Positions 866-22,778 of a DNA stretch of 64,000 nucleotides are shown here, piece after piece; position 1 is the stretch's first letter, and every line of letters begins with the position of its first letter. The notes under the pieces were generated by a model, which saw only the letters and a program-made list of their open reading frames with translations, ran no database searches and was not told where the DNA came from. A program made the position numbers and the translations under genes. Source of the stretch: a virus. Lineage: Duplodnaviria; Caudoviricetes. The DNA is taken from positions 128,001-192,000 of the IMG/VR virus record IMGVR_UViG_3300014208_000023; one strand, 5' to 3'.

Positions 866-1575
866 TATTTCTTCCTCCACACTTCAAGAAATACTTTTTT
901 GGATTGACCATATAGTTTAGCCGTATTAATTTGCTTGCTAGTAATCTTTCCAAAATGACTAACTGAATTATTAGGAATAAGTGATAATGGTAGTCCCATC
1001 TCGGATGCCTTAAAGCTTAAATGAGTATCTTCAAAATAAGCAAAATATAGTTTGCTATTGAATGGCCCCTCATTACCTTCTTCAATTAACTTATCAAAAG
1101 TTTTCTTTGTGGCCGTAAGCATCCAGCCGCTTAAGTAGTTGAACTTCTTCTCTCCATCAGTTTCATAGCAAAACTGAAACTCCCGTTTTGGATCTACAAA
1201 TCCGCCAGTTGGAGACATTATTTGATTTGGATTTTCCTGTAACGCATTTAGATATACATCAGTCCATATTGAAAGGTTAGCATAAACCTTAATATCATTA
1301 TTCAAAAACATAACGGCATCATGCTTGGCAATTGCGTAGCCACGATTACAAGCCGCGCCAAACCCAGTATTTTCGTTATTCCGAATATACACTAGATTAG
1401 GCATCTTTTTGACAAGCTGTGTCATCCCTTCTACGGTGCCATCGGTACTAGCATTATCTACGACGATGATCTCATGCAGATCAGCATCTAGGAAGGCTAG
1501 GTCCTTTAAGCAGGCATTAGTAAAGTTCCATCTATTATAGACCGGAATGACAATCGAAAGTTTATTTTGCTTCAT
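865..1575 (-). CDS. Glycosyltransferase family 2 (GT-A fold)
   Basis: SIVIPVYN, IIVVDNASTDGT, NTGFGAACNRG, VMFLNND (DxD-like) and FAYFEDTHLS motifs. Likely start is ATG 1575; the track extends to TTG 1629. Confidence 0.92.
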   Translation of the reverse strand: MKQNKLSIVIPVYNRWNFTNACLKDLAFLDADLHEIIVVDNASTDGTVEGMTQLVKKMPNLVYIRNNENTGFGAACNRGYAIAKHDAVMFLNNDIKVYANLSIWTDVYLNALQENPNQIMSPTGGFVDPKREFQFCYETDGEKKFNYLSGWMLTATKKTFDKLIEEGNEGPFNSKLYFAYFEDTHLSFKASEMGLPLSLIPNNSVSHFGKITSKQINTAKLYGQSKKVFLEVWRKK

Positions 1576-1902
1576 CTCGGTATTTCTTACGAGCATAAAA
1601 TTTCTTCTCGACAACTTTCTGTAACCCAAAAAGATTTAGTAGTAGTAACACATAGTAAGTAATACTAATCAAATAATAGATCAAGAATAGTATGCAGGGA
1701 TAATATAGAGCGGAGCGGCTATGTTGGCTGGGATATGATATTAAGATAGTTTATGTCTTTATAGTGGCCTAGGTTCTATAGTCGTCTTGCTATGATATAT
1801 AGTAGTAGTTGTAGGGCCGCCATCCGTTATCCTATGATCTTTTTAGTTGTCGAGAACTCTTCCGTCGCAGCACATATAGTTTCTGCATAGGAGCCGAAAT
1901 CG

Positions 1903-2247
1903 ATGGATAACGTGAGTTTATTAAAGTTTAAGTATTTGATGGCAGAATACAAATCAAGCCATGATCCTAAATTTGCAGTAGATATTTGTGAGATGTTTGT
2001 AAATGGAACATTACAAGCAAAAGGAACTACGAAAGATGGTAAGATATTATTTATTGTTTCTTCTAAATACAGAAGTAAATGTTCTAAATGTGGAGATCAT
2101 TATGAATATGGGGATTCTATATTTGTAAGAGATCAAAAGGCTTGGCATTTAAAATGTGCCAGTAATGATGACCTTGAACATACATATTTTAAAGATTGCC
2201 TTGAAAAAGGTTTAGTGGATGATTTTGAAAGGAATATTAAGCAATGA
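1903..2247 (+). CDS. Hypothetical protein with possible Zn-binding motif
   Basis: AGGAG upstream of ATG; CSKC...HLKC; coupled to the next ORF (ATGA overlap). Confidence 0.7.
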   Translation: MDNVSLLKFKYLMAEYKSSHDPKFAVDICEMFVNGTLQAKGTTKDGKILFIVSSKYRSKCSKCGDHYEYGDSIFVRDQKAWHLKCASNDDLEHTYFKDCLEKGLVDDFERNIKQ

Positions 2248-2522
2248 AACAAGCTAGAGGAAAATTAGAAGTATTTATGCAACATATGGTTGTAAAATAT
2301 GATGGGATGATAACTGAGGATGGTGATAGAATTTCAATTTTTGATGAAAAAACAGAACAGGCTCATAGTTATCCAAGTCAGTGGTGTCATATTATTTGGG
2401 ATAAGATTATAGTTCCAAAAAAAATAGAAACAAGATCGTGCATACAAATTGGTTGTTACAAAGATTCTAACCTATTAACAGAATACTGTTCAAGTCACTC
2501 GTTATATGGAAGCAGATACTAA
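2244..2522 (+). CDS. Hypothetical protein
   Basis: ATGA overlap with previous ORF; 92 aa; Cys/His-rich C-terminus. Confidence 0.6.
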   Translation: MKQARGKLEVFMQHMVVKYDGMITEDGDRISIFDEKTEQAHSYPSQWCHIIWDKIIVPKKIETRSCIQIGCYKDSNLLTEYCSSHSLYGSRY

Positions 2523-2542
2523 ATTTTAGGAGATAAAAAAGA

Positions 2543-6164: not shown

Positions 6165-6184
6165 ACTTGCTATATAGCTAGCCT

Positions 6185-9100
6185 TTATAGGCCTAGAAGA
6201 TTTATTGTCTTATTATCATCAATTACTATTGGTGCATTATTCCATCCAGCTTTTTTAAGATAGACGGTAATTTGCACCTTCGTATTTTGAGTTTGCTCAA
6301 CGGCATCTTGATATAGATTGCTGAACTTAAGCGAAAGAAGGCCAGTGTTATAATTTACGCTAACACCAATTCTATTATCAACTATAACTCCAGTATATCC
6401 GTCAGTAGTTATGCCATTCAATTGTGGGGAGAATGATAGAACTCCAACAGACACTCTAATCTGATTATTTGTAAAGCCAGATAGCGATACTAAACTATTA
6501 TCAGCAAATCTCATGGCTTTATAGCCTATTCTTGTATAGCCAGTTCCAGCATAATCCGCAATAAAGTCAGTTAATAGATTAACTACTTTCTCACTACCGA
6601 AAATCTCAACTGCTGGTATCTCGAAAGATACTGTTCCCATTTCAAAATCAACCTTGAAATATCCACCAGTAGGCGTAGTTATCTGGCCTCCAACATTCAT
6701 TACCAAATTACTTGGTATGAACATATCATTGCGACCAGGATCGAATGCTGGTGTTTCTGGGAAAGTTTGAGTAACGTTTAGATTTGTTGTGCTTGGATTT
6801 ACCAAATATCCAGTAGCAGTATTGAATGCTGCTGGAACCATTTTTGGATTAGAATTAACGACTATGTTATGCTCTTTCCAGCTTAACTGCTTAATGATAC
6901 TGAAGTTAATTGGAGTAACCTTAATATTTTGACCGGACCAGCTGGCATAACCATCAATAAATACATCTGGTTTGGCGTGTAGCGTAGTTGATCGATTAGC
7001 ATCTACTCCAGGATAGTCGTCGGCCCTATCAACATATTTTTCAACCGTTAATTTTACAGCAGTAAATGTCGTACCAATCTTATTAGCAGGACTTGTTGTT
7101 GCTGGGAATGGAGGTAACAAATTAATATAGTTAGTTATGTATGTTACATCGGTGCTAGAGACGGTCATATCTCCATCGATATCTGCCCTTAATACTTTTA
7201 AGAATAAATCAGAAGTATATTCGAGTTTAACTATAGTTACGTTTGTATTACTAAGTAAATTAGTTATTCTAAATGAGCTATTGTTATATAAGCTAGTTGT
7301 TGAATTGAGTATATTGACTTTATGTGTGTCTAGGTTTATAACGCTAGAAAAGTTTGCCGATATACTAGAGAAACTAGCGGATGTTCCATTAGCAACAAGA
7401 ACTCCATCAATTCCGCTTTGAACAACTACACTATTGACATCTAGTAATTGCCATGACAAAGCCGAATCAGTTACGAAATCAGTAGTATGAACTAGATATT
7501 CAGATGTAGTTGGAAGGGTATTTAGTTGTGTTCCAAGTAACTCCTGTGACGCTAGAAGATCATCGGTATCAATTATTCCATCACCGTTTATGTCTCCATA
7601 CATAAGCGTATGAAGCTCAGCCTTTACTATTCTGTAGTATATAGATGGCGTAAGCGTGTTAGGTATTATTTTTGCCTGATTTAATTTGCCCGAATCAAGA
7701 TCTGCTAATAGCGTAATTAGATTTTGGTCGTATCTATAACCATCAGAATAGCCATCTATAATTTTAAATACTATTTCATTTCCAACCATTCCATAATGAT
7801 GGAATGCCGCGTTAGAAATTTGACCAGCAATAGAAGATGATTTAATATTCTGATCAGTAATTGTTCCAAGAAGTAATGGTTCAGACACTGCCTTAATGGA
7901 GTCAAGCGCAATAGTGTTTAGTAAAGATAATTCTGGTGTAAATTGTTTTTGAGAATTAATTGGATTGCCAGTTCTCTCATTTTGAATTGGCGCACTTTCA
8001 GTTATTGCGGCCTTCATTACAGCATAGTATAAATCATTTCTCAAGAAAGAGTTATTGCTAAAGCTATAATCAATTGTAGTTCCGGTATTGCTATCAATAG
8101 TTGTTTTTGGTATTTGTATTCCACTACCATTATCATAGGCTTGGCCATCAGAAACTTTTGCAATATCGGAATATGTTCTAAACCATAGAGCCTCTTCAGG
8201 CACATCTACCCATACACTACCATTAAATAGCGTTTCACGAGTATTTGTTTCAGCATTACTTCCTACCGCAACTTGCATTTCACATGTGTCGGCAGATCCG
8301 GCTCGTTTAACGGTTATTACGTAATAATGTCCAGATGTGATTAGTGATCCAGAACCGACTGGCGTATTACTAAAGATAAAATCAACTGGCTGAGGAACGG
8401 TATTTAATTGAATGCCGTTAGCAAGCATTGAGTTATAGTCAAGACTTATCTGCGCCAGTGGAATATTGGTTGGATCAAAATCAATGGCTAAATTAGGAAC
8501 AATATCAGTTGATGACTGAACTGTTGATTGTAATGCATAGATACTAACTATAAGATCTCCGGTCCAAACTAAATTAGATGGAACTGAATTATTTATCGTA
8601 GATAATAGTAAGCTTACTTTTTGAATATTGTTTGATGTAGATAGAAATTTCTGGCCAATCTGCGAGCTGACATCATTTTCAGCTATTCCTCGTAATTGCT
8701 TGTATCCGGTCTTAATGTTTAGAGCATCTATGTTATAGCTTGGTAGGGCCGTAGATAATAAATTAAATAGAGTTCCACCAGTGGCAACGAAAAAATCTCT
8801 GAACACTAGATTAGGCTCAATATCCTGAGAAATCATAATTGGGTCTCTAGAAAGAGACATGGGCATGGCCTCGCGGATAACTATTCTTCCGCCTAAATTA
8901 AATGATTGTAAGGATCCGCCAACAAAGTCATTGAGAAATATTGCTAAAATATTGCGATAGTGTTTTTTTGATATTTGCTTTTCATTTTTGGCAAAAACGA
9001 ATGTATCGTATTGTAGATTATTTTCAAAATCTAGGCCTATTACGATTATCTTAACTGTTTTATTGCCGGCGGCCAACGATCCCGTAAGTTCAATCTCTAA

Positions 9101-9355
9101 TTGATTTCCATTATTGCTATCCGAAGGCTGCGCTTGGGCGACTATAACTTTACCATCTAAAAGGTCACCAGATAGGCTTGTGTCAAATAAAACACCCTGA
9201 ACTAGATTTTCTGGAAGAACACCAGAACCTAAATGATTGCTTATAAAAGCAGAGTGCTGCTGCTCGTTATGGTTTTGCTCGACTGTGAGATTGGTATCAT
9301 CCACACTCTGTGCATCTGACCAAATATTCTGGGGTGTTGAAATGGGTATTCTCAT
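6185..9355 (-). CDS. Large virion structural protein (baseplate/fibre-associated) with dockerin/EF-hand-like motifs
   Basis: 1056 aa, beta-rich, last gene of the baseplate operon; GDINGDGIIDTDDL and ADIDGDMTVSSTDV; four DGY motifs. Confidence 0.65.
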   Translation of the reverse strand: MRIPISTPQNIWSDAQSVDDTNLTVEQNHNEQQHSAFISNHLGSGVLPENLVQGVLFDTSLSGDLLDGKVIVAQAQPSDSNNGNQLEIELTGSLAAGNKTVKIIVIGLDFENNLQYDTFVFAKNEKQISKKHYRNILAIFLNDFVGGSLQSFNLGGRIVIREAMPMSLSRDPIMISQDIEPNLVFRDFFVATGGTLFNLLSTALPSYNIDALNIKTGYKQLRGIAENDVSSQIGQKFLSTSNNIQKVSLLLSTINNSVPSNLVWTGDLIVSIYALQSTVQSSTDIVPNLAIDFDPTNIPLAQISLDYNSMLANGIQLNTVPQPVDFIFSNTPVGSGSLITSGHYYVITVKRAGSADTCEMQVAVGSNAETNTRETLFNGSVWVDVPEEALWFRTYSDIAKVSDGQAYDNGSGIQIPKTTIDSNTGTTIDYSFSNNSFLRNDLYYAVMKAAITESAPIQNERTGNPINSQKQFTPELSLLNTIALDSIKAVSEPLLLGTITDQNIKSSSIAGQISNAAFHHYGMVGNEIVFKIIDGYSDGYRYDQNLITLLADLDSGKLNQAKIIPNTLTPSIYYRIVKAELHTLMYGDINGDGIIDTDDLLASQELLGTQLNTLPTTSEYLVHTTDFVTDSALSWQLLDVNSVVVQSGIDGVLVANGTSASFSSISANFSSVINLDTHKVNILNSTTSLYNNSSFRITNLLSNTNVTIVKLEYTSDLFLKVLRADIDGDMTVSSTDVTYITNYINLLPPFPATTSPANKIGTTFTAVKLTVEKYVDRADDYPGVDANRSTTLHAKPDVFIDGYASWSGQNIKVTPINFSIIKQLSWKEHNIVVNSNPKMVPAAFNTATGYLVNPSTTNLNVTQTFPETPAFDPGRNDMFIPSNLVMNVGGQITTPTGGYFKVDFEMGTVSFEIPAVEIFGSEKVVNLLTDFIADYAGTGYTRIGYKAMRFADNSLVSLSGFTNNQIRVSVGVLSFSPQLNGITTDGYTGVIVDNRIGVSVNYNTGLLSLKFSNLYQDAVEQTQNTKVQITVYLKKAGWNNAPIVIDDNKTINLLGL

Positions 9356-9360
9356 ATGTC

Positions 9361-12300
9361 CTAGCGGTAGTTAATAAATACTCTGGAGTTTGCTGGCTTG
9401 AGAGTAGAAATTAAGTCTTCCATTACAGTTTTTGCTTTACTATTCTCTCTTAATATACCAAAACTATCAAAGACATTTATAGTAATATCGAATAAACCAG
9501 TCTTCTTATTTTTAATTACGGCAAAATCTGTTGTTATTTCTGATAACTTATTGAAATCTAACAATAAAGTAGTGTATAAATCTTCAGTTGCTGGAAACAC
9601 TACATCTATATTTGTGCTATACCCTGGGTCAATAGGCTCTCCAAAAGGCTTAAATACTGGCCTAGCAACATTACTTATGCGAAGATTATCAATCAATGCC
9701 ATGGCGCCAAGAGTTTGTGTATAATCAGATCCTATTGTAAATTCATTAATGGTATCAGCAAATGACATGGCTGACTGTATAGAGTTATGGCCTACATACG
9801 AAGAACCGAATACCATATTTTCACCAAATAATAGTCCAGATCCAAAAAGAACGTTACCTTGCTCATATCCATCTATAAAGAACCTGATCTCATCAGTTCC
9901 TAGGCCTTGATTTATGATATATTGAGCCCTAAGCTTATGCCATGTATTTTTAGCCCAAAATATAGGAGCGCGAACTTGATGGCTTATTCCAGCACCATCA
10001 ATAGTGAAATTGATGTATCCATAAGGATCTTTATATATAGACATTCTATCGCCAGATAGACCAGTAGGAATATAGATCACTACTATAGATGTTTTTTGAT
10101 TTGGTAACTTCTTATTAAGAAGAAGCGTTTGTGCGTCAGAACTAATGCTTCCACCTGCAAAATAATCCGTATCTTGAGCTCCATTAGCAAGCTTTATGCC
10201 CAATACACTAGATGCTCTTCCAGCTATAGTTACCGTTGCGTTATTTGTGCTTACAATTCGCTCGGTCACGATTCCTGTAGCGTCAAAATAGAATCTATAA
10301 TTGGGATCATTTCCAGTATCATTTAATGGATTTACCCATAACTCTATGGTTCCCTCTGTTTTTGTATTTAAGATGCCAGTATTATCTATAAGTAATGGGC
10401 GATCAGTAAATGATATGCTTTTATTAAAATTACTATTTACACAAGACGCCGACTGTATAAATCCTTTTGTTGCGGTCAGATACACATCCGTATTGTTTGT
10501 TAGCGTAGTCGTATCAAAATCTAATAACATAAGTGTATTTGAATTTGGTTTAATTGCTTTCAAAGAATTGTAGTGTTTGGTTACGCCATCAGCATTAGAG
10601 GCTAGAGTTTCTCCGATTCTTGTGTCAGACAATTTAGTGTCTAAAACAACGAAATCATCTATTATTGCTTTTGACTGATGACTACCATCAAGATCAGATC
10701 CAATAAATCCTCGAAGATTTCCAGTTTCTATTGGTATAGATAGCCCGGTATGATAATCAAGCTCGTAAAGGCCTTGTTTTAATAAATATGGAATACCAGG
10801 AAATAATGACTGTTCAAAAGTAAATTTTCCATTTTGTAATCCGCTACGCGCTTCGCTTACATTAAGTATTTCATAGTTGCCGTCAGTAAATGTTCCTGCC
10901 AAATCACTAGATATAGTGATTGATGTTAGGTCATCTGATACTGCACTTATTAAGTATTGGCCAGCAACTGGAGCTGGAGAATATATTATTAAATAATTTC
11001 CAATATTCTCTTTAGAGAATTGATTAGTTAAGTCTTGGACTGTATTAGCCCCAGATGTTCCTGCCAAAGTATTTCCAACTAGCATCTGATAGCTGTATCT
11101 AATTACTGGAACCAATAAGCTATTCTCTTGCGTAGTTATAGTTTCTTTTTCAGAAATCTTAACAGTGCAACATCCTCTGGCAGTATTGACTGGCTTACAT
11201 GTTACAACTATATAATCAGTTAAAGATACTTTGCCAGCAGTATATTTGGTTCCGTTCTCCGAGAACGTTAAGGTCTCCGTAGCAGCAGCCACGCCATTAA
11301 TTGTTCCAACGATATCTACTGATACGCTGCTTGAATAATCGATATTGTCACCACTTATTGTTACGGAAAGAGTTCTTCCATTATCACTGAGAGATGGTTG
11401 ATCAGTCAATATATTATTTGAGGTAAATACGCCTAAAGATAGGGTTGAGTTGGTTGGGCCAACAACCGTGGTATCTAAAAGAGTATGGTATATTTTCACA
11501 TCTTCCAAGGTTATTGGAGATGGAAGCCTGGTATTTAATATATTTGAAGTATTACCCCAAAGATAGTATTTATTTTTGACTCTACCATGATTAAGGCCTA
11601 GAGTTCTAATTAAGGCGATATCATTTTTTGTAGCGCCGGCCTTAATGGTAAGAACATTACCATAATAACCGTCTCTAGTTATTTCATAAGACGGAAATAG
11701 AGCACGTTGCCCAGGTAGTTCGGTCTCATCGGTAGAATAGATATAAAAAGATGTTCCAGATGTTGTTAGAGGCATAACATCTGATAGTGTAAGCGTATTG
11801 CCAGATACACCAGCGACAATATAATACGATGCGAATCCAACTTGATTTATTTTAATCAAATCCCCAACGACAACGCCTGCCGTTTGAAAGTTATGGCCAA
11901 CAGAAGAAACCACATTACTTAATGCGGTTGTGACCAAATCAATATCCTCTATTGTAGTATGGATTACTGAAACGGCTATATTTTTAAATAAATTAATTTG
12001 CGTAGTAACGGAGAATGAAGTTTTATTTATAGAAAATTTGCAATTAGTTGCAGACACTGGCATTGCAGATGCCAGCGTTAATGTATTGCCATTAACATTA
12101 GTTATTGAGTATCCAGAAGTATTAAAATCAACCTCATCTATATAGATTGTGTCGCCTATATTAATTCCTAGATCAGTAAAATTTAGAGAAGATGTCACGG
12201 TAAAAATACCGGCACTAGTAACCAAATCTGTTGATCCAACTATGCTTTTTAATATTTGGCCTATAATATCTTCAGTTGAAATTGTTCTAAATTTTTGATG

Positions 12301-12546
12301 AAGCAATTCAGATACTTGCCCACCATATTTAATTACATTAGGAACCTCAACTCCATCTATAAATAGGTGCATCTCATCTTGCTTGGTCAATGAGTTTAAG
12401 ACCCAGCTCGTGGCTACGTGATGCTGTTGCCCAGCCTTCCAAGATGATACGTCTGCGCTTACAACATAAATGTTGCCCTTATTATCGGTTATTTTATAGT
12501 TCAAATAGCCGGAAGCGTCTCTAAATAAAGAAAATCTATTTTTCAT
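9361..12546 (-). CDS. LamG/concanavalin-like baseplate protein; C-terminal half of a split gene
   Basis: Begins with the second half of a LamG domain (KNRFSLFRDASGYLNY...WKAGQQHHVATSW...DEMHLFIDGVE). It also contains a complete second LamG domain (EGTIELWVNP...DRMSIYKDPYGYINF...DEIRFFIDGYE). Confidence 0.75.
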   Translation of the reverse strand: MKNRFSLFRDASGYLNYKITDNKGNIYVVSADVSSWKAGQQHHVATSWVLNSLTKQDEMHLFIDGVEVPNVIKYGGQVSELLHQKFRTISTEDIIGQILKSIVGSTDLVTSAGIFTVTSSLNFTDLGINIGDTIYIDEVDFNTSGYSITNVNGNTLTLASAMPVSATNCKFSINKTSFSVTTQINLFKNIAVSVIHTTIEDIDLVTTALSNVVSSVGHNFQTAGVVVGDLIKINQVGFASYYIVAGVSGNTLTLSDVMPLTTSGTSFYIYSTDETELPGQRALFPSYEITRDGYYGNVLTIKAGATKNDIALIRTLGLNHGRVKNKYYLWGNTSNILNTRLPSPITLEDVKIYHTLLDTTVVGPTNSTLSLGVFTSNNILTDQPSLSDNGRTLSVTISGDNIDYSSSVSVDIVGTINGVAAATETLTFSENGTKYTAGKVSLTDYIVVTCKPVNTARGCCTVKISEKETITTQENSLLVPVIRYSYQMLVGNTLAGTSGANTVQDLTNQFSKENIGNYLIIYSPAPVAGQYLISAVSDDLTSITISSDLAGTFTDGNYEILNVSEARSGLQNGKFTFEQSLFPGIPYLLKQGLYELDYHTGLSIPIETGNLRGFIGSDLDGSHQSKAIIDDFVVLDTKLSDTRIGETLASNADGVTKHYNSLKAIKPNSNTLMLLDFDTTTLTNNTDVYLTATKGFIQSASCVNSNFNKSISFTDRPLLIDNTGILNTKTEGTIELWVNPLNDTGNDPNYRFYFDATGIVTERIVSTNNATVTIAGRASSVLGIKLANGAQDTDYFAGGSISSDAQTLLLNKKLPNQKTSIVVIYIPTGLSGDRMSIYKDPYGYINFTIDGAGISHQVRAPIFWAKNTWHKLRAQYIINQGLGTDEIRFFIDGYEQGNVLFGSGLLFGENMVFGSSYVGHNSIQSAMSFADTINEFTIGSDYTQTLGAMALIDNLRISNVARPVFKPFGEPIDPGYSTNIDVVFPATEDLYTTLLLDFNKLSEITTDFAVIKNKKTGLFDITINVFDSFGILRENSKAKTVMEDLISTLKPANSRVFINYR

Positions 12547-12593
12547 AATTAATTACAATATAATGCGGGTTTATGTCTAATAGTTATTATTGC

Positions 12594-14800
12594 TGGAGCG
12601 TGTCGAGCGTCATCTCTCACCTCCACTCATCATGCCGGCGCTATGGTGGTAACCGTGCCGCTCGAACCGCGATACTTGAGCGCTCCAGCCTCAACATATA
12701 GCACCCCGCCCGCCGTCGGGTTCGCCGTCGGGACCGTTCCCGCGTTGTCAATGCCGATGACGCCGCCTCCGCCGCCGAGATCTGCCGCGCCCGCTCCAAT
12801 CTGGAGCCCGTCAGGCGTTACCTGAAATGCGCTCGTCCCGTTGAGCGAGAAAACGTGCTTAGTGAAGGCGTCGTAATTGAGCTGATATGCCTGGATTGCA
12901 CCGAACAGAGAGAGCGAAGTGCCGAACGTCCACGACGATCCGCCACCGTCTGTTGTAAGCAGGGCGCGATCTGTGCCGTCGAAGTTACATACTAGCTGTG
13001 ATCGAGTCACAGCCCCCGTGCCGATGCGGATTGCGCCGGCCGCGGCCACCGTGTCGATACCGAAATCGCCGTGCGCCGTGAGGCCGCCGAGCGGAGAGAA
13101 GCTCTCGAATGCCGCCGCGGCGAAGGATACGGCCCCTGCCGCGACTGTTGCGTCACACACCGAGTCGAGCGTGAACTCCGTGGTGCCGGAGCCGCCCGGT
13201 TGCGCGATGATCTTCTTGGTGCCGGTGACGCCAGCAATAGCGATGTACTGCCCGACGACCATATCCGAATAATCACTTACGGTGATGCTCGCACTACCAC
13301 TCGTCGCCGCGCCCACCGTCGCCCCCCCGTTGAGCGTCCCCATTGTGCCAGACGTGAGGCACCGCTGACCGAGCTCTCCGCCAGAGACGGGTTGAGCTTG
13401 CCACACAACGTCGCCACGTTCGTACGTGAGATCAGCGCCGCTGTACTTCGTCGTTTTCGGTGACGTCTCAGACGTGAAGATGATCGCCGCGTTTGAACTG
13501 TCCGAGCGGCCAAGCATGATACCATTTTCGGCCCAAGGCACCGGCTGCCGCGGGCACGCTTGACTTGTGAGAAACGTCAGTACCCGATCGTAAATGCCGT
13601 TGTTCTGTAGAACGAACGATTTGGTAGTCTCATGATAGTTAAGTGAGTGCCTGTTCTGGACGTTGCTACCTGCGTCGTCGTACGACGCAAACGAGAACGT
13701 CGCCATGTCGGTACCTAGAGCCCCGATAGCGCCCTCAACCTTGCGCGTGCCTCGATCGGCTATGTACCGGAGTGGAGCGTTCGAGGCCGCGCCGTGCGAA
13801 AGTAGGAAAGCTGTCGAGTCTGTCGTGAGCATCCCCGCATTGAAGGTGCCGCCGATGATCGTAGCCTGACCGAGCATATGGTTCAGCGGACCTTCCTCAC
13901 AGTAGCAGCCAATGAAGTTGGATCGGTTGGAGTCCTGCGCCGTGCGGTAGTTGCTGATTGCGTTCCCCTGCGCCGTGCACGCTACATACGTGTTGCCAAA
14001 CGACTCATCATAGAATCCGTAGCCGGTGTTGAACGAAGAGTTGATGCCGATGAGAGCGCTCGCGTTCGAGTCGCCGCCGTACATGCGACAGCCATCGCCC
14101 TTGCATTGCCCGATGTTGATGTTCGAGAACACCGACGAGTCAATGTTTCCGGCGGCCGATGTGTCACCGACTAGGCCGTGCCCGCCAAAGCCTTGAATGT
14201 CTACGCTCTCCACGGTGCACTGCACGTGCACCGAAAGCCCGTTGCCCGAGACTGTGCCTGCTGCCATGCAGAATAGGGTCATATTCCGCAACACGGAGTG
14301 GTCCGCGCGTGGGTCGAACGCCGGATCGTGCCAGAGATGCACGCCGTCAACGTCGGCGGGGAACACGAGCATCGTTCCCGGCGACGTGCGGTACGACACG
14401 AGCTCCGGATTCGACTTGCCCGATCCCTCTAAGACGATAGTTTGCCTGACGTCGAGCGGGCCGGAAAGGTAGAAGTGCCCGTTCGCAACGAGCTTCGTGA
14501 CCCGGTTGCTATCGGCTTTCATCGCCGCGAGCGCAGCATTGAAAGCTGCGAGGTTGTCCGTCCCCGTCGTGCCGTTCCAGTCAGCTACCGCACCGTAGTC
14601 CTCGACGTCGTAGTGGCCCGGCATTACGGCCTTGCCTGCACGCAGCTTGGATCCGCGCTTCTTCCAGACCTCTCCGGTGGCAAGCGAGTCGTTAGTCTCG
14701 ACGCGCACGCCCTTGATGCCAACCACGCGGTCAATGTTGATGCCAGTGCTCGATGCTATGTCATCTGCGACTGTCGCTCCTCCGCCGGCCCCACGAACAC
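12594..14800. mobile_element. Recently acquired high-GC segment inside the baseplate operon (no transposase or integrase)
   Basis: Sampled lines are 50-70% GC versus about 30-40% in the flanks. The segment ends abruptly near 12594, just after an orphan GGAGGTG RBS and ATG ACG CTC GAC ACG CTC CAG. Confidence 0.7.
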
Positions 14801-14834
14801 CATCAAGCACAGTTTGTACCGTTTTTTTTGACAT
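12630..14834 (-). CDS. Tailspike/tail-fibre-like protein with pectin-lyase-like beta-helix (putative depolymerase); high GC
   Basis: [31 protein letters not shown] at the beta-helix entry, beta-helix-like repeats, and a fibre-type C-terminus [34 protein letters not shown]. Confidence 0.75.
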
Positions 14835-14959
14835 ATCTAATATCCCATTCTAAATACATAACGAATCACTATTGTCTAATAATAAATTATTATCATCTGC
14901 TAATAATAGTAATCTTGCTAATTCCAAAACATCCGCTTGAGTTAAGGCATTATTTATAT

Positions 14960-17900
14960 TTATTGCCTCTGACTCCCAAAATCAAATAAATAATGCTCAT
15001 AATCTGCCGTTAAAGTAATGCCTTCATGAGTCGAAGCCGCATCTACTATGCTATAAGTTATTTTATTATTTCCACTTCTTAATTTACCATTTGAGGTTAT
15101 TGAGTCAGATGTTTTTTTGATATCATAAAATGAACCATTTGTAGTTATTTTGATGATATGTGACGACGCTACGTATCCATCTCTATAGCCATCAGAATAT
15201 CCATCATAGCCATCAGAATATCCATCCGTATATCCATCAACAACATCAACAATATCAACGCACCATCTATTAAATATTCTGGTGCTATCTGGAACTATAT
15301 AGATATATATTCCATCCTTATTTTTATTTGGCAACCCTAACAAATCGTTATTCAAATTATTTATTGTAAATACACCATTAATAGATTTTGGATGATTCTC
15401 ACCTGGTCCAATAAAAACTTCACGATCATGAATTGATCGACCTGCTTTTGTAATTTCAAAAGATAAATCTGCCTGATTATCTATCCCATTCCACTGTGGA
15501 ACAACCCACATTTCCATTGTTCCCTCTTCAATTTTAAGGTTGGAAATTACTGGAAAACTAACCGTCTGATCTGGATTAGATACTAGAATGCCATTGCCAT
15601 GTTTTGCTGGAAGTATTTCGAGCTCACCAGTTGTCTTTACTTTTTGTCTAGAAAGAAGGCTGCTTCCAAGTGACCAATTTGTGAATGCGGCCTCTATTAT
15701 TTCTGGCGGAACATGAGTAATGCTCTGGACTATGTTTCGCAAAGAGCTTACCGTTGGGCCCTGAGTAAATGACTGCATTGCCGCAACAAGAGCATCGCGA
15801 TACCTCTCACGCGAGAAGTCTATATTTAGATTATTTAAAATAGGGATATCGATAAGTGTTCCGAAATTTTTAAGCAAGGCATCACGCAATGCTCCGGCCT
15901 TATAGGTTACGTAATATTTATTTCCGGGCTCTACCGTTGTAGATTTAGAGAAATCTAATATATTGTCTCCATGCTCATAGCTTAAAATTATCTCATCGGC
16001 AAGATAGCTGTAATCTATTAGATAGTCTCCTCGACTATAATCGACGACTATTCTTGATAAATCAGCTATCGTAAATGAGTATGTAACCAATACTGCATCG
16101 CCCGTAACTGGAGTATTTACGCCAGATAGGGTTAGCGTTAAAGGAGAGCCGGCAACAACAATACCTGAACCATCCCAAAGTTGAGCACTATCAGATAGTC
16201 TAGTAACACTAACAGTTACGCTTATATTTGGAGAAATATATGGAAGATTAGTATTAGTAACAATAATATGATTTAGACCAGAAAGCTGAACTGATTGATA
16301 CTCGCGATATTGTTTGGTAGAGACACTTATTGTTTTTCCATTTACAGTGGCAGATGTAGCAAAATTAATTGGACTAACATTATTTAAAAGGTCTTCCCTT
16401 TCGAATAATCCTCTTACATATTTGACATAGTCAGTTACACCAGGTATGAAGGTTGCCGATTCAAATACTCCAATATTTCCATTATATATTTGATATGGAA
16501 GAGTTGCGACACCACCTAAGAAGTTTTCAGCAGTAGTATCAAATACTGATGGAAGAATAAGAGAATCAGTGAATGAAGTATATTCAAATGATCTTACCTT
16601 ATCAGCCAAAGAGTTTAGCTTATAATACATATCAGATATTGTTATGATATGTGGATGCTGCGTTTTAACGTATCCTCTTTTATAAAATACGGTTCCTATT
16701 GATAGATCCTGGTCTGTAGCAACCACAACCCAAATCACGCCATTTTTATAATCTACTTGATATTCTCCAATTTGAGTTAGTTTGGAATTATTTTGACTTT
16801 CAGTAAGTCCGATATCATAATAAAACTCGGAAGAGAACGTGACAGTATCAGAAAATGTTATGCTTTTATTTTGAGAGTGAGCTATACCATCTTCAGACGC
16901 AGCAATAATGTTATTGTTGAGAAGGAATATTTTAAATAGTTTTTTAGTTACAGAAAGAGTAGTGGTTGTGCTAACGAAAAGAGTTTCATTTGGAACATCA
17001 TCAAATGACACACGCTCTCTAGTTAAATCAGTAATTTTTGGGGGTGTTTGGTATGTAAAAAATACTTTGCTTTGATTCCATCGCGATACATTATAAACTT
17101 CGCCGCTAGTTTCATTAAAAATTCTAAATACATTAGTTATTGGAAAGTTTAATGGCCTAATTACATTTAGCGCCTCTAGTCTATTTTCAATTCTTTCCGA
17201 TAACTCTTCCTTATGGACTTCTGCAAAATAATCTACATCTTTAACTAGAACTTTATCAAAACTATATGTAATAGCGGCTGGCGATCCGGTTAAGTTACCT
17301 AAAGGTAGAGCTACGATATCTGACGCGGAATCATCATATACATAGTCTATTTCTGATTGAAAGGGATATCGATAATAATATATTGCAAGTGGAGGGTAGG
17401 CGCCCGTTCCAGATCTATTATTGTCTTCACCAAACACATATACTGTTCCAGTAGAGTAATCTACCGAATATTCTCCAACTCGTGATGGTAACGATTCTAG
17501 TCTAAAAGGTATTTCATAAACAAACGCTGGGTGAGCAGTATTGCTTCCGGGAAAAGCATTTGGGTCAGAGAAGGATATATTACCAACTTTTCCATTTATA
17601 TTATTGGCGCTTACGATCGGAGCGTGCTTTAGATTAAATACATTTTCTATTGCTGGCAGCACTTCTCTTCCAGAAGGAAGAACGGCATTAGCTATAATAG
17701 TTGCTGGATCGATTACCTTGCCCTGATCTTTATACTGATAATCTATAGTTATAGATGCTATATTCTCTAAAGAGAATGATGTATTTGATAATACCTTATC
17801 GCTTAATCTAAATTGGTTTTCTCCTAGCGAAACATATGTAAATGCATAGCTAGGATCATATTTAGAATTTTGGACTTGGTATCCATAAATAGTTTTATCA

Positions 17901-18706
17901 TATGAAAACGCAGGTAATATTGAATTATAAATTATCGTAACGCTATTAAGTATAGTTACTGGAAACTTTTTTGCATTTATGGTAAGCGTTTTTAAATTGA
18001 AACTTCCTATAGAATCGGAATTACTTAAAGTAAGTGTTTCGACCATATTGGCACTTAACAATGACCGTGGAAAATCTGGAAATTCACTTTCATTAATGGT
18101 TTCCGTTAAGGGAGCATTCGTTGGAGTTAGGGCAACGCGACTTATCTCATATGCTCCCTCTTGATTTAACCTGTCGTGCGCACTTGTTCCTCTGGTTTTT
18201 AATTCATCAGTTACCGTGAATGATAAGTAATTATCGTTTTTTGTTTGGCCTATACTATATAGTGCTTTTGATAATGATAATGATAGTCCGTCAATATATG
18301 TTGATAAAATCGATGGTGACTCTAAATCATATACATTCTTTGATAAAAAACCTAATAAAGCGTCTTTAATGGGGTTGCTTGCTTCAAGTGGCCCTACGAA
18401 ATAATGTTTATTCGTAGCACCATCATTTAAAATTACGGCATCACCATTTAGTGATTTAAAAATAACCGTATCAGTACTTTTAAAGTTTATTACATATGTT
18501 GCTTGAGATACTATTGGTTGTGTAATAATGTTTAAAACATTATCGACAATATCTATTTCAAGAATAGTTGGTGCAAGAACGCCATTAGTTTCAGAAGTAA
18601 TTGAAACATTATCAATCCCTATTAATGGGCTCAACGATGAGCTGAACTTTGCAGATAAATGAGTGCTATCAGTTACTGTAAATGATAATAATCTTAAATT
18701 TGCCAT
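14960..18706 (-). CDS. Baseplate wedge subunit (T4 gp7/P2 gpI-like region); N-terminal half of a split gene
   Basis: Directly follows baseplate J. Contains RERYRDALVAAMQSFTQGPTVSSLRNIVQSIT and ends inside a LamG domain (EGTMEMWVVP...YEHYLFDFGSQRQ*). Confidence 0.7.
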   Translation of the reverse strand: MANLRLLSFTVTDSTHLSAKFSSSLSPLIGIDNVSITSETNGVLAPTILEIDIVDNVLNIITQPIVSQATYVINFKSTDTVIFKSLNGDAVILNDGATNKHYFVGPLEASNPIKDALLGFLSKNVYDLESPSILSTYIDGLSLSLSKALYSIGQTKNDNYLSFTVTDELKTRGTSAHDRLNQEGAYEISRVALTPTNAPLTETINESEFPDFPRSLLSANMVETLTLSNSDSIGSFNLKTLTINAKKFPVTILNSVTIIYNSILPAFSYDKTIYGYQVQNSKYDPSYAFTYVSLGENQFRLSDKVLSNTSFSLENIASITIDYQYKDQGKVIDPATIIANAVLPSGREVLPAIENVFNLKHAPIVSANNINGKVGNISFSDPNAFPGSNTAHPAFVYEIPFRLESLPSRVGEYSVDYSTGTVYVFGEDNNRSGTGAYPPLAIYYYRYPFQSEIDYVYDDSASDIVALPLGNLTGSPAAITYSFDKVLVKDVDYFAEVHKEELSERIENRLEALNVIRPLNFPITNVFRIFNETSGEVYNVSRWNQSKVFFTYQTPPKITDLTRERVSFDDVPNETLFVSTTTTLSVTKKLFKIFLLNNNIIAASEDGIAHSQNKSITFSDTVTFSSEFYYDIGLTESQNNSKLTQIGEYQVDYKNGVIWVVVATDQDLSIGTVFYKRGYVKTQHPHIITISDMYYKLNSLADKVRSFEYTSFTDSLILPSVFDTTAENFLGGVATLPYQIYNGNIGVFESATFIPGVTDYVKYVRGLFEREDLLNNVSPINFATSATVNGKTISVSTKQYREYQSVQLSGLNHIIVTNTNLPYISPNISVTVSVTRLSDSAQLWDGSGIVVAGSPLTLTLSGVNTPVTGDAVLVTYSFTIADLSRIVVDYSRGDYLIDYSYLADEIILSYEHGDNILDFSKSTTVEPGNKYYVTYKAGALRDALLKNFGTLIDIPILNNLNIDFSRERYRDALVAAMQSFTQGPTVSSLRNIVQSITHVPPEIIEAAFTNWSLGSSLLSRQKVKTTGELEILPAKHGNGILVSNPDQTVSFPVISNLKIEEGTMEMWVVPQWNGIDNQADLSFEITKAGRSIHDREVFIGPGENHPKSINGVFTINNLNNDLLGLPNKNKDGIYIYIVPDSTRIFNRWCVDIVDVVDGYTDGYSDGYDGYSDGYRDGYVASSHIIKITTNGSFYDIKKTSDSITSNGKLRSGNNKITYSIVDAASTHEGITLTADYEHYLFDFGSQRQ
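15173..15238 (-). repeat. In-frame tandem repeat encoding six DGY units (DGYT DGYS DGY DGYS DGYR DGY)
   Basis: Read directly from DNA and protein; degenerate 9-12 nt units. Confidence 0.95.
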
Positions 18707-18707: not shown

Positions 18708-21700
18708 TTAACGAGATTCCTGATTTACAATAATATCATTTGCAGAAAAGAACTGATCCGCTTCAGCAACAAGAGATAGCTTCTGCCCAACTACTCCATT
18801 TTTATTGAAATAAATAATACGAGCCCGATCAACACCATCAACTCCTTGTGCTGCCACTGCTAGGTCAGAAGCATTTATTACATCTCCCAATGTTCCAGTA
18901 TTGATTGCGCTTGTTATTCTATCTTTTGTATTTTGTTTAACTATTGCAGCAGAGCTATTGAATTCTGTTTTGATAACTATATTTAGCGTAGCATTAACTA
19001 GAACCTCTTTAGCCTCTCTAACCAGTACATCGGCATTTATTGGTCTAGAAGACTCTATTGCAAATGTGGTATCAGCAATGACTTGGTTAAAATTGCTTCT
19101 AATCAAAATTCTCTCATTTTGCTTTGGCGCAAGATAATCATAAAATGCTCTATATCTTGATCCGGTTGTTGGTTGAGTAAAAAATGAAATTGTAAATCTA
19201 GCAGATTGAGAAGAATTAAATCCGCTGGATACATATAGTTTATTCAATAAAGCAAATTTCTTATTAGTATATAGCGTACCATTTCTTGTAAAATATATAT
19301 TTTCAGAATCACCATCAGTAGCATACACAAAACTAACTCTTAACTTATCTCCTATTATTGGGGCCGAAGCAACGTTTGCGACCGTAGATGGTAAAATAAA
19401 ATCCATTTTTGATAACGAAGAGTTTATATTCATAATGTTTGAATATAGTAGGTCATTATAAATTTCAGTTCCAGCTACGTCATATGTAATGGCTGATGAT
19501 AATACTTGATCGTCAGTAGTAGTTAATACTTTTTCTACCTTTAAAACTCTAACTACAGATTTATCAGAACCTATTACTGATGTAGATGCTGCTCCCAAAA
19601 ATGTTTTCATCGCCTCTAGCAGGTTTTGCTTTAATCCATTTTGGGTGGCGGTAAATATAATGTTAGAAACTTTTGTAGTTGTTGTACCGGTGGCAGTAAG
19701 AATGCCGCTATTAGTAAGCTGATCGGTTAGAGTTATAGCTAGTCTAGTTGGAGATTGTCTTAATGTTTTATTTCCAAATACAATAACGAGAACATTATCT
19801 CCGGCTATAGCATTGGTTGAGCTAACCAAATTGAGCGTATTTGATGACATACTAGATGTGCTAGGCATCCATAAGTCTTTATTGTCTAGTAATCTAATTA
19901 CGCTTATTTGATTGTTGGATACATAGCTGGTTAGCGGACTTATAATAATGCTGTTAGAATTAACATATTGAATAATATTAAATGTGCCATTATTGTTTAT
20001 GTTGGCAGCATTAGATATTATTATCTGCTTTGATTTTATCTGTGATATTGTGGAAAAGTTTATACTGATACTATCAAAGGTAATGCTTTCAGAACTAACG
20101 CTAGAGATATAACCATCTGTGGCTGATGAAATAACCAATCCAGTAGTAGGATCTATTATTTCAAACTTTAGCCCAGTTGCGCTTGTAAAATTATTTAGTG
20201 GGCAGTATAGGTTGTTTGTAGAAAAATTATAGCTTAATGGATGTAAGTTATATTTTATAACTTCATTTGAAAATGTAAATGGTTGTCCGCGAGAAATATC
20301 AGTTGCCTTATAAACGACAATAACCTGATCTCCAACGGCTGGACCATTGAGCCCAGAGAAGGTTAAAACGTAGTTACTGCTTCCATCGACACTGACGGTT
20401 CCGTAACCATCACTATTCCAGTATTCTTTACCAGAAACTATATTCATTACGGTAATGACATTAGCGGCGGTTAGAGAATACTGCGTCGATAATAGACTTA
20501 ATGTTACATAAAAATTATTAGATACATCCTTTTGAACAGTTTGGTTCTGCCTGCTTATACAATTTGAGATTACGGTATTTTTACTTCCAGTATTTGTTCC
20601 TAAAACAAATCCATTACCGTCTCTGCTAATTGGTAGGTTAGTTACACTGAATGCCAATAAATCTTGCGATGATGAAACATAAGTCACAAGAAGATTTATT
20701 TGAGATGGAGTTCCAGTAATATTTCCTGATGGAACAGTCATATCACCAGAGATAAAACTTCCATTGGAATTTGTCACATTAAATACATCAATAGAGTTAT
20801 ATATTATAATAACATTATCACCTATGATCGCTTCTGTATCAGTAGGAAGAATAATACTTACATTATATTTTATATCAATACCAACTGCGACTCTATTATT
20901 TAGAAATAGCCCATCAGAAGATGCTGTTGAATATAATTCTTTTTCAGTATTAGTTAATTTAATACCGGATACACTATCTATTTGAGCATCTATTGCCGAT
21001 AGGCTTATAGCAAGACGATCAGAGAAATTTATTACTGTGCTGGCTTCCACCGTGCCAACAATTACATTGTAGGTGTTAGCAGATATTACCGAAGATATTG
21101 GTAGAGATGAGCTTCCAGTATAAAATGTGTTATCAGCATTTAGTCTAAATAGAACTTTTTCTGTTCTAACGGAATTAGATAGCCCCCAGTCAATGCTATC
21201 TACACTGCTTCTGGGATTGTTGGTAAGTAGCTTACCATCATAATCGCTAAACGCATCATAATCAATAATCCAAGTATAATCTACCTGAAGTATATCGCTT
21301 GCTGATGGTAGAGTATTTCCGCTAATCTGTATTCTTCCAGAATTATTGAATGGCGTTCCGTTGTCAAGATTCTGATTGGTTACCGTATAACGCTCTCCAG
21401 TATTTGAATTAAGAACCCTGCTAACGTTACTACAAGGAGTATGTAGTAATTGAACTATTGACCTGTCAGAGTTTAATACTGTGCTATTTTCATTATTGAC
21501 TGGAACATTTTGCTGTATGGTTGGTATTTCAATTACATCGGTGAATGTAGCCGCGTCCTGACCATTAAATTGAGCTTTGATAATATCTTCTTGAAAATCA
21601 GATACCCTATCACTTACCCAGACAAATGTATCTCTAGCCCAATTGCTTCCGGCATAAGCACCAGTATCTTTTACAAGATCATAGTTACCAGTAACACGAC

Positions 21701-22778
21701 CCAATGAATCTACTGATTTTGGAATAAAATTTCCACCGCTTAACGATCCGGTTACTTCTAAAAGATCTTTTATTGGTTGAGAAGGCACAATGCCAGCAGC
21801 AATATTGTCTATTCTCTTACGAGTTATAGTTTTGTTTTCGTCACCAGTAATTTGACCTAAAACAACATCATTAGCAGTATTTGTAGGATCATTACTATTA
21901 CTTTTATCTCTATAAATAAAGGTATCAATATTTTCATTAGTATTGCTTCCAAGGACAACAACATCTACTTTGCCGCCAGTTCCTTCAGACACTATGCTTT
22001 TGGTTTCGTCTTCAGCAGTTTTTACTATTGTTCCGTCACGCGTCATGAGAACATCGCCAGGACTAATAACTAAAGCATCCTGCACTGCCGAATTAGTTAG
22101 CGCTGTATTTTTATATCCAAGAGCTGTTCCTATATTGGATCCGCTAAATATAGCCAACACTCTGTTTCTATATGACGTATCATCTTCTTGATTTGCTCCG
22201 CCTTGAAAAGCGAATACATTAGTTACATTAGATACTCCTGGGATTGAAGTTCTAACTAGACTGTATTTTGATATATTTCCCTGCGCTCCTGGAACACTGG
22301 CCCTAACCGATACCTCTACCGCAAATGGGTCTGTAATATTTAAAAAGTTTAGGTCATTTTGATATTTAGTAGCTATTGAGCGATAGTAATTGCTTTTAGA
22401 TGAATCAACGCTGAATCCATTTGTAACAACAAAGTTAGATCCATTTTGAGCGGAAATAGAATCGCCCGAATTAACTGCTACATTGGCCGGAAGAGAACTA
22501 AATGTCAATAAGGCTATACCAGTAGATGATGATGCAGTTTTTTTGGTGGCTCCAAGATTCTGCCCTAATTTCTCTAAATCAGATCCCGAAACTAATCGTA
22601 ATGATTGAAGATTTGAAATTGCCGCAACTTCATCATGAAGAAGGGCTATTTGACTGCCTGGAGCATCTATGAATAGATCTCGGGCAACAGTACCATCTTT
22701 GGTATCCAAATCAGGCTGAGAAGCCTTATAGTATTCTATAAGCTCTAGTACGATTTCATTAAGAGATTTAATAGCCAT
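18708..22778 (-). CDS. Baseplate J-like wedge protein (T4 gp6-like), greatly extended
   Basis: VRASVPGAQGNI...IPGVSNVTNVFAFQGGANQEDDTSYRNRV and C-terminal INASDLAVAAQGVDGVDRARI; follows the gp25-like gene. Confidence 0.88.
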   Translation of the reverse strand: MAIKSLNEIVLELIEYYKASQPDLDTKDGTVARDLFIDAPGSQIALLHDEVAAISNLQSLRLVSGSDLEKLGQNLGATKKTASSSTGIALLTFSSLPANVAVNSGDSISAQNGSNFVVTNGFSVDSSKSNYYRSIATKYQNDLNFLNITDPFAVEVSVRASVPGAQGNISKYSLVRTSIPGVSNVTNVFAFQGGANQEDDTSYRNRVLAIFSGSNIGTALGYKNTALTNSAVQDALVISPGDVLMTRDGTIVKTAEDETKSIVSEGTGGKVDVVVLGSNTNENIDTFIYRDKSNSNDPTNTANDVVLGQITGDENKTITRKRIDNIAAGIVPSQPIKDLLEVTGSLSGGNFIPKSVDSLGRVTGNYDLVKDTGAYAGSNWARDTFVWVSDRVSDFQEDIIKAQFNGQDAATFTDVIEIPTIQQNVPVNNENSTVLNSDRSIVQLLHTPCSNVSRVLNSNTGERYTVTNQNLDNGTPFNNSGRIQISGNTLPSASDILQVDYTWIIDYDAFSDYDGKLLTNNPRSSVDSIDWGLSNSVRTEKVLFRLNADNTFYTGSSSLPISSVISANTYNVIVGTVEASTVINFSDRLAISLSAIDAQIDSVSGIKLTNTEKELYSTASSDGLFLNNRVAVGIDIKYNVSIILPTDTEAIIGDNVIIIYNSIDVFNVTNSNGSFISGDMTVPSGNITGTPSQINLLVTYVSSSQDLLAFSVTNLPISRDGNGFVLGTNTGSKNTVISNCISRQNQTVQKDVSNNFYVTLSLLSTQYSLTAANVITVMNIVSGKEYWNSDGYGTVSVDGSSNYVLTFSGLNGPAVGDQVIVVYKATDISRGQPFTFSNEVIKYNLHPLSYNFSTNNLYCPLNNFTSATGLKFEIIDPTTGLVISSATDGYISSVSSESITFDSISINFSTISQIKSKQIIISNAANINNNGTFNIIQYVNSNSIIISPLTSYVSNNQISVIRLLDNKDLWMPSTSSMSSNTLNLVSSTNAIAGDNVLVIVFGNKTLRQSPTRLAITLTDQLTNSGILTATGTTTTKVSNIIFTATQNGLKQNLLEAMKTFLGAASTSVIGSDKSVVRVLKVEKVLTTTDDQVLSSAITYDVAGTEIYNDLLYSNIMNINSSLSKMDFILPSTVANVASAPIIGDKLRVSFVYATDGDSENIYFTRNGTLYTNKKFALLNKLYVSSGFNSSQSARFTISFFTQPTTGSRYRAFYDYLAPKQNERILIRSNFNQVIADTTFAIESSRPINADVLVREAKEVLVNATLNIVIKTEFNSSAAIVKQNTKDRITSAINTGTLGDVINASDLAVAAQGVDGVDRARIIYFNKNGVVGQKLSLVAEADQFFSANDIIVNQESR

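Follow-up and report, generated by a model that had tools for sequence, protein, structure and literature searches.

In the Aeromonas phage Aeh1 the gene nrdA is split by mobE, and in phage T4 the topoisomerase genes 39 and 60 are split by mobA, arrangements known as 'genes in pieces'; for Aeh1 NrdA, reassembly of the pieces has been shown (PMC2988022). Gene 43 of the Aeromonas phages 25 and 44RR is divided at the same site, which holds seg43 in one phage and a short untranslated spacer in the other (44RR) (PMC2988022). The tailspikes TSP1–4 of the Ackermannviridae phage CBA120 are exchangeable modules with conserved N-terminal anchor domains (PMC8825819, PMC9965104). Here we analyze a locus within a 64,000-nucleotide (nt) stretch of phage DNA (positions 128,001 to 192,000 of the IMG/VR virus record IMGVR_UViG_3300014208_000023; the whole stretch is called the window below), in which a minus-strand operon encodes two long proteins, P0002 and P0003, with a third gene, P0001, between them. 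We consider it probable that P0002 and P0003 are the products of a structural gene in pieces whose break serves as a slot for cassette genes, and that in this phage the gene resident in the slot has been overwritten by a foreign tailspike gene.

The record to which the window belongs is 428,320 bp long, carries direct terminal repeats and represents a phage from groundwater with a mean guanine-plus-cytosine (GC) content of 39.7%. INPHARED phage records contain no match to the 9.3-kb region, to P0003 or to P0001, and a full-text search of open-access papers turned up no account of a tailspike cassette splitting a baseplate gene.

One ancestral gene encoded as two halves

The first-pass annotation of this DNA had proposed that a break within a LamG domain divided an ancestral gene of about 2,300 amino acids (aa) and that both halves persist as genes, each with its own start. 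The open reading frames (ORFs) concerned are:

14960..18706, minus strand: P0002, the upstream half, 1248 aa
12630..14834, minus strand: P0001, the cassette gene, a chimeric ORF of 734 aa in which the resident ribosome-binding site (RBS) and the codons MSKK are joined to a foreign tailspike-like protein
9361..12546, minus strand: P0003, the downstream half, 1061 aa

Coordinates and termini of the two halves are as had been described: P0002 closes with EGTMEMWVVP...ADYEHYLFDFGSQRQ and a stop, its final residues being HYLFDFGSQRQ, and P0003 opens with MKNRFSLFRDASGYLNY...DEMHLFIDGVE (MKNRFSLFRD...). Fused homologs exist in number. A HMMER search with P0003 against 1.8 billion representatives recovered dozens of relatives of 2,100–2,500 aa in which the match starts near residue 1,200. 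Among IMG/VR relatives, P0004 (2493 aa) and P0005 (2203 aa) are each a single ORF on which both halves align consecutively, with P0002 covering residues 1–1231 of P0004 and P0003 the part from residue 1238 to the end, and likewise on P0005. Altogether 38 fused forms (2,100–2,600 aa) were placed in a phylogenetic tree, and 22 were inspected at the junction, which reads HY(L/I)xD(F/V)G, followed by 1–6 unaligned, mostly acidic residues and then by (K)NR(F/L/I)S(L/I)(F/Y)KD. These alignments confirm that P0002 and P0003 are two halves of one protein that is a single continuous ORF in the 38 relatives, and the proposal of a broken gene of about 2,300 aa is upheld.

Both ORFs are otherwise uninterrupted, as first noticed, and orthologs of P0003 are 1061–1062 aa long in six lineages. 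The upstream halves of the split phages L008 and L011 have, relative to each other, a ratio of nonsynonymous to synonymous substitution rates (dN/dS) of 0.076 and the downstream halves one of 0.050; in comparisons of the halves with the window it is 0.055–0.10 where dS is computable. Against the nearest relatives, designated X3 and X4, P0002 has 21 synonymous and 3 nonsynonymous differences and P0003 has 6 and 2, giving 27 versus 5 for both halves together. Because dN/dS lies at 0.05–0.10 across the split clade and synonymous changes dominate, both halves are, by these measures, kept under strong purifying selection. The alternative that the split is a decaying or neutral lesion, with the halves or the broken LamG domain dispensable, could draw on the loss of a conserved tail from the window's upstream half through a frameshift (see below); in view of this selection, of the intact ORFs and of the constant length of the downstream half it is very improbable.

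The break falls inside a LamG-like domain

P0002 ends with the N-terminal strands of a first LamG-like domain (EGTMEMWVVP...HYLFDFG), followed by four out-of-frame codons and the stop, and P0003 starts with the central strands of that domain, which closes near P0003 residues 610–660; P0003 holds in addition a second, intact LamG domain. The Pfam family Laminin_G_3 (PF13385) matches P0003 from profile position 44 at residue 3 (34.1 bits against a cutoff of 27.6), and in the fused P0004 (1050–1340) it spans the junction, covering profile positions 14–110 (30.4 bits, cutoff 27.6). In an AlphaFold2 model of another fused relative (P0033, residues 1039–1902; 26-row alignment; mean predicted local distance difference test score (pLDDT) 86.3, predicted template-modeling score (pTM) 0.75), strands 180–186 and 193–198 are joined by a 6-residue loop, and this is where the break falls. 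VIA-align superimposes this model on the LamG domain of PAPP-A, laminin LG4-5 and LG5, perlecan LG3, pentraxins and CBM40 with Z scores of 13.9–15.7 and root-mean-square deviations of 2.3–3.4 Å over 140–170 aligned residues; a Foldseek search with the 864-residue model returned only uninformative matches of low template-modeling (TM) score. Since the aligned range runs from the first residue of the model to residues 830–864, the first LamG-like domain is predicted to be discontinuous, its segments spread over ~830 residues with large inserted subdomains. The break lies in a hairpin loop of 3–7 residues inside this domain.

The two ends had been read in the first-pass annotation as consecutive parts of one LamG domain, and in the fused relative the corresponding regions indeed form one LamG-like fold. 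In the split phages, the two chains would complete the LamG β-sandwich non-covalently. As a separate observation, P0002 residues ~1157–1180 (window ~15190–15260), within an insertion of the first LamG domain, contain a run of DGY repeats (VDGYTDGYSDGYDGYSDGYRDGY), of which fused relatives have a weak trace only (DGY in the consensus).

A single and old origin of the split

Searches with P0002 recovered separately encoded upstream halves at 74% identity (P0181, 1288 aa, which sits on a 431-kb NCBI contig, and P0182, 1286 aa) and at lower identity (P0183, 1278 aa, 58%; P0184, 1302 aa, 57%), and relatives at or below 50% identity to P0002 are all fused, or fused but cut by the contig end. A separate downstream half, P0031, is exactly 1061 aa long at 69% identity; the C-terminal 109 aa of P0002, compared with short proteins in search of the 81-aa partial gene upstream of P0031, matched nothing. 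A metagenome scan with the clade alignment returned one distant locus only (L007). A European Nucleotide Archive scaffold (L006) considered as a further split form was rejected, as it has an N gap exactly at the junction (558–1043).

The downstream region was used for a maximum-likelihood tree (quick IQ-TREE search, midpoint root), in which all five split forms fall into a single clade (Shimodaira–Hasegawa-like approximate likelihood ratio test, SH-aLRT, 99), itself nested several nodes deep among the 38 fused forms. The sister of the split clade is the fused P0185, with the same gene order and the junction HYLFDFG-KSLSC-NRFSIYKD; at its locus there is no cassette-type gene within 10 kb, and the tail described below is also absent. 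On this tree the split is shown to be old, of single origin, and common to a clade reaching down to 57% identity.

The idea that insertion of a cassette broke the gene survives in part. The break is clade-wide and predates the GC-rich gene now present, which by this phylogeny did not make it; a cassette as the cause of the split is nevertheless the most parsimonious solution, because all split lineages with readable or listed context carry one and the fused sister carries none.

A conserved tail and its loss by frameshift

Past FDFG, the upstream halves P0181, P0182 and P0183 continue for ~42 residues, with the pattern ...N.ALTQ.DVL.L....L(I/L)T(D/E)....LLLE..(E/D)LL.I before the stop. Two features of the window belong to this tail:

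14853..14975, minus strand: frameshifted tail remnant ESEAININNALTQADVLELARLLLLADDNNLLLDNSDSLCI, present in the −1 frame only, with its stop at 14850–14852; homologous to the tails of P0181, P0182 and P0183
14975..14977, minus strand: GGG run with one base missing relative to all relatives; the frame shifts and the protein is truncated at GSQRQ and a stop

In the DNA alignment the letters TTTTGG are followed by A in L008, by G in L011 and by T in L009; the X3 relative also has an extra base and the window has nothing. Only in the frame of the tail (ESEA) do the substitutions at 14967 and 14970 leave the encoded residues unchanged. Because the relatives carry the extra base and an in-frame tail, the 1248-aa P0002 of the window is best described, from these alignments, as a form of a ~1,285-aa protein truncated by a 1-nt deletion. 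The −1 frame that had been pointed out at the left junction (ESEAININN...LCI and a stop) is present, and it is the ancestral frame of a conserved C-terminal tail, not junk. The junction pieces and the tail peptide have no paralog in the phage's own genome.

Could an intron or intein, or else programmed frameshifting or ribosomal bypass, rejoin the two halves into one 2,300-aa protein? A −1 shift at TTTTGGG would lead into the ancestral tail frame, and phage ribosomes are able to bypass short gaps, as in T4 gene 60. To our knowledge, bypass of 2.4 kb has no precedent. An Rfam scan of 12300–15200 found no intron or other RNA family at E ≤ 1, and Pfam scans found no Hint or intein family. In every relative the tail closes with a stop, TTTTGGG is not a canonical X XXY YYZ site, and the intervening DNA is wholly different between relatives and consists of ordinary genes with their own starts. 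Rejoining is, on this evidence, extremely improbable.

A slot with changing contents

The DNA between the halves differs from one member of the split clade to the next:

L008: a 200-aa protein and a 603-aa TIG-domain protein
L011: a 199-aa protein
L009/L010: a 953-aa Pect-lyase_RHGA_epim protein (with tail-spike PHROG matches) and a 362-aa cellulase of glycoside hydrolase family 5 (GH5)
P0184 contig: a 527-aa protein
window: the 734-aa high-GC P0001
X3 relative: no gene; the stop of the upstream half and the start of the downstream half overlap (ATGA)

The first cassette protein of L008, L011 and L009 has a common N-terminus, MSK(R/K)I.EL..L......DL.P.VD...KKI...LL, and a common C-terminal domain of ~150 aa, between which the 953-aa protein carries an inserted β-helix. 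The halves of L008 and L011 differ little (dN 0.05–0.08), and their cassette proteins are only 53% identical, a contrast typical of host-recognition modules. The gap is probably a cassette slot for putative receptor-binding or glycan-degrading proteins. Pfam and PHROG searches of the slot DNA for homing endonucleases found no HNH or GIY-YIG family (they returned pectate-lyase-like, TIG or GH5 matches, or nothing), and scans of the window's insert for terminators, sigma-70 promoters and repeats found no terminator, flanking inverted repeats or target-site duplication.

Outside the split clade, the unrelated phage contig L013 (IMGVR_UViG_3300001866_000057) encodes a 172-aa protein that also has this N-terminal motif (ELGSLTEPADGDLVPVVDMSGTPTTKKI; 5986–6504) and, at 8–4960, a 1650-aa tail protein in which ATEDGDTLLTEAGEVLLFE is similar to the split clade's tail motif. 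This co-occurrence hints that the N-terminal motif and the tail motif travel together beyond the clade.

The empty slot is seen in X3, a freshwater run from a third study, whose short contigs are ~90–99% identical in nucleotides to the flanks of the window. One further feature is defined by it:

12547..14908, no strand: segment missing from the X3 relative, whose contig joins 12546 to 14909 with one extra letter

The same contig has one more base behind 14975, and its upstream half, rebuilt from the listed differences, ends in HYLFDFGESEAISANNALTQADVLELARLP (...ARLP) with a stop that overlaps the start of MKNRFSLF... (CCATGA). The split thus persists without any cassette in a near-identical relative, and the ATGA overlap points to translational coupling of the halves.

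This form bears on the order of events. The gene might have been split first, by a small non-coding or otherwise short insertion, and the cassettes might have colonized the gap later, in which case the ATGA form would be nearer to the ancestral state; there is also precedent for such an order, since gene 43 may already have been split when an endonuclease invaded it (PMC2988022). The cassette-less form is, however, the closest relative of the window, nested among cassette-bearing lineages at 74%, 58% and 57% identity, and its tail breaks off in the middle of the conserved motif, which is what a deletion reaching from within the tail to the ATG would leave; for these reasons we read it as a deletion derivative and not as the ancestral state. 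The fused sister lineage, moreover, has neither tail nor cassette. We regard the split-first order as unlikely.

The same data allow a more speculative reading, which we consider rather unlikely: the split site could be a plug-in socket, in which the tail and the cassette N-terminus arrived together as a cognate docking pair. The product of the slot may then be mounted on the baseplate beside the reassembled LamG domain. In the phage of the window the socket may have been dismantled, the anchor being overwritten and the tail frameshifted, and in X3 the cassette and half of the tail may have been deleted together. The tail is intact where the anchor gene is present (3/3 readable lineages) and damaged where it is absent (2/2), a pattern of co-loss that is suggestive but not significant. 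A complex prediction for the P0181 tail (residues 1236–1288) with the 200-aa cassette protein of L008 scored 0.00, was run without controls and counts neither way. If the socket exists, the imported high-GC tailspike would either have another way of attaching or work as a free depolymerase.

Expression of the downstream half

The downstream half had been credited with its own ATG and a copy of a late-promoter motif. The ATG is conserved (MKNRF in L008 and L009, MSRNRF in L011, MPNLKNRF in P0031), and the promoter part of the claim holds only weakly. The 13-mer CATAAACCCGCAT (12563..12575) differs at one position from the degenerate motif AATAWWNNNRYAT, which has 23 matches in the window against 13.9 ± 3.9 expected, a modest enrichment; a search with the exact 13-mer at up to two mismatches returned only this copy. 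By itself, the copy in the window would hardly count as evidence for a promoter. Exact copies of AATAWWNNNRYAT stand before the equivalent ATG in L008 (53 nt upstream, 16315–16327) and in L011 (37 nt, 5941–5953), where ~0.01–0.02 copies per intergenic region are expected at the loci's own density. An internal promoter before the downstream half is, from this distribution, plausible.

Recent overwriting of the resident cassette by high-GC DNA

The present content of the slot is of foreign composition. Its parts are:

12591..14821, minus strand: donor-derived high-GC DNA, ~2.23 kb (boundaries ± 3 nt), delimited by GC content at third codon positions (GC3) and by the end of homology
12587..12613, minus strand: stub of the donor's next gene, an ATG and seven codons (MTLDTLQQ), with a GGAGG Shine-Dalgarno sequence at 12620–12624 and a stop formed at the recombination junction
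12547..12590, minus strand: AT-rich resident intergenic remnant, which holds the promoter-like 13-mer

The block has ~60% GC, with a peak of 0.66, between flanks of ~35%, and P0001 has a GC3 of 0.717, compared with 0.227–0.262 in four neighboring genes and 0.29–0.39 in tailspike genes of other AT-rich phages. Homology to the relatives extends over the tail, its stop, the RBS and ATGTCAAAAAAAA (MSKK) and is lost at ~14822; at the other end, the foreign fragment extends 40 nt past the P0001 stop. Because the homology continues through leader, RBS and the codons MSKK and then stops, the present gene is, on this evidence, a later overwrite of the resident cassette gene after its fourth codon, and from its composition the import would be recent and almost un-ameliorated. 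The resident anchor-type cassette protein has no homolog in this genome, and its anchor-like N-terminus is not in P0001; a candidate match to that N-terminus in the phage's own genome (E = 0.17) was rejected, as it lies within an unrelated ATPase-like ORF.

Residues 74–577 of P0001 are 64% identical to P0007, encoded on a phage contig that carries rIIB; this is the best relative found, and a search of genome contigs and viral contigs for the donor found none. P0001 is also 28–36% identical to proteins annotated or scored as related to glycoside hydrolase family 28 (GH28) or as Pect-lyase, and its homologs carry PF12708. In the structure model of P0001 the core (71–330) is of high confidence and the N-terminal 70 and C-terminal 150 residues are of low confidence; Foldseek gives a probability of 1.00 to the tailspikes of phiAB6, Fri1 (gp49) and CBA120 (TSP2), with TM-scores of only 0.2–0.28. 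The predicted structure is that of a tailspike-like right-handed parallel β-helix, putatively a depolymerase. The C-terminal module, of tail-fiber type, is 33% identical to an AT-rich paralog elsewhere in the same genome. That paralog (L002; G000:C1:310151-314014, ORF 355..3099) is a tail-fiber/tailspike-like protein of 914 aa with a GC3 of 0.29, that is, with native AT-rich codon usage, and the module that it has in common with P0001 reads GVIGID.A..VPT.NPT.G.VLY.E.GALK.R...G..TT.

Two further observations concern this DNA. The 10-nt word TATTAGAYAW occurs three times on the minus strand of the locus (12573–12582, 14833–14842 and 14872–14881), that is, in the resident intergenic remnant after the donor DNA, just before the cassette ATG and within the frameshifted tail; it may be due to chance in AT-rich DNA, or be a short sequence with a role in recombination or regulation. 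GC is also raised (~50–63%) over a second and far larger region, G000:C1:45001-67000, which lies ~61–83 kb before the start of the window, consists mostly of short minus-strand ORFs and is unrelated in sequence to the P0001 insert.

Genomic context and assembly

The virion operon is tightly packed on the minus strand and runs from a wedge gene through P0002, P0001 and P0003 to a conserved gene, the two outer members being:

18708..22778, minus strand: Baseplate J / gp6-like wedge protein, 1356 aa (Pfam PF04865, E = 2e-17; PHROG 6, baseplate wedge subunit, E = 1.3e-31)
6185..9355, minus strand: conserved ORF of 1056 aa after the downstream half

P0002 lies directly downstream of the Baseplate_J/gp6-like gene, and the order from wedge gene to halves is conserved synteny. 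P0002 and P0003 themselves have no PHROG match, and their assignment to the baseplate comes from this neighborhood; both are putative virion proteins. Residues 724–752 of the 1056-aa protein resemble Dockerin_1 (28.6 bits against a Pfam cutoff of 22.9, E = 1.7e-6); in precomputed Pfam listings the L008 and L009 orthologs show a faint trace only.

The extreme jump in GC and the metagenomic nature of the record might suggest that the high-GC insert or the 1-nt deletion is an artefact of assembly or sequencing. Logan contigs of two groundwater runs, from two studies and at depths of 16 and 26, are identical to the window without a difference over 11800–15700 and reproduce both junctions, although these runs may be the sources of the record; because of this match, misassembly is unlikely. 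The insert, moreover, begins exactly at the resident start codon common to the relatives and returns to the resident intergenic region, and the same architecture occurs with other cassettes in an NCBI genome and in JGI and Logan contigs. An artefact is hardly credible as an explanation.

Proposed history and comparison with known systems

The following history would account for these observations. In an ancestor of a clade of ~430-kb phages, a fiber-type gene would have inserted into the short hairpin loop of the first LamG-like domain of a ~2,300-aa protein, bringing with it a leader that encoded the ~42-aa tail and a trailing intergenic region. Two polypeptides of ~1,280 and 1,061 aa would since then have been kept by selection, and the gap would have become a hot spot for the exchange of putative receptor-binding and glycan-degrading genes. 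In the phage of the window, illegitimate recombination would have overwritten the resident cassette gene, from its fifth codon to beyond its stop, with ~2.2 kb of high-GC DNA, such that the imported tailspike-like protein uses the RBS and start codon of the resident gene for its expression. The conserved tail of the upstream half was lost through a 1-nt deletion.

Several points weigh against this history. The order of its first events, a cassette causing the split or colonizing an existing one, is argued from parsimony. The mutual binding of the halves is argued from selection and conservation, and their location in the virion is presumptive. The cassette-less form of X3 comes from a single 481-nt contig at a depth of 4.5. 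If the two runs that reproduce the junctions are the source samples of the window, read support and fixation of the 1-nt deletion are not independent. The match of P0001 itself to PF12708 is below the cutoff (19.8 bits against 27, E = 7.5e-4), and its structure model is only moderate overall (mean pLDDT 62).

If the proposed history is right, a large virion-type protein cut in a β-sandwich has nonetheless been maintained for a long time as two chains, which would extend genes in pieces from replication enzymes to structural proteins and provide a natural example of fragment complementation in the LamG fold. The break, as an exchange hot spot in huge uncultivated phages, would be a place to look for host-range determinants. 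A gene with a GC3 of 0.72 among neighbors at ~0.25 would also be a record of genes passing, very recently, between phages or hosts that differ widely in base composition.

With LamG and concanavalin A-like jelly-roll domains (PF13385; laminin LG, pentraxins, CBM40), the domain cut here shares the fold, at the Z scores given above, and a Pfam match above cutoff; it differs from them in being apparently discontinuous, with inserted subdomains, and, in the split clade, in being shared by two chains. The likeness to TSP1–4 of CBA120 lies in the cassette proteins of the relatives, with their conserved N-terminus and variable enzymatic bodies (pectate-lyase β-helix), and in the fold match of P0001 to TSP2. 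Unlike the CBA120 genes, those of the slot lie inside a split baseplate gene and not in a tailspike array, and the anchor-like N-terminus has been replaced here. Gene 43 of phages 25 and 44RR parallels the cassette-bearing and the cassette-less ATGA forms and raises the same question of which came first; there, the divided gene encodes an enzyme and the cargo is an endonuclease, whereas here a virion-type protein is concerned and the empty form looks derived by deletion. The likeness to Aeh1 nrdA and T4 39/60 is that a gene continuous in relatives has been cut in an important region by foreign DNA, the pieces remaining intact and separately expressed. In contrast to those systems, the gene of the present locus is a structural one of the baseplate region, the break lies in a β-sandwich that would have to reassemble from the two chains, and the cargo consists of fiber, tailspike and glycanase genes instead of homing endonucleases, in a slot for which at least six contents are known.

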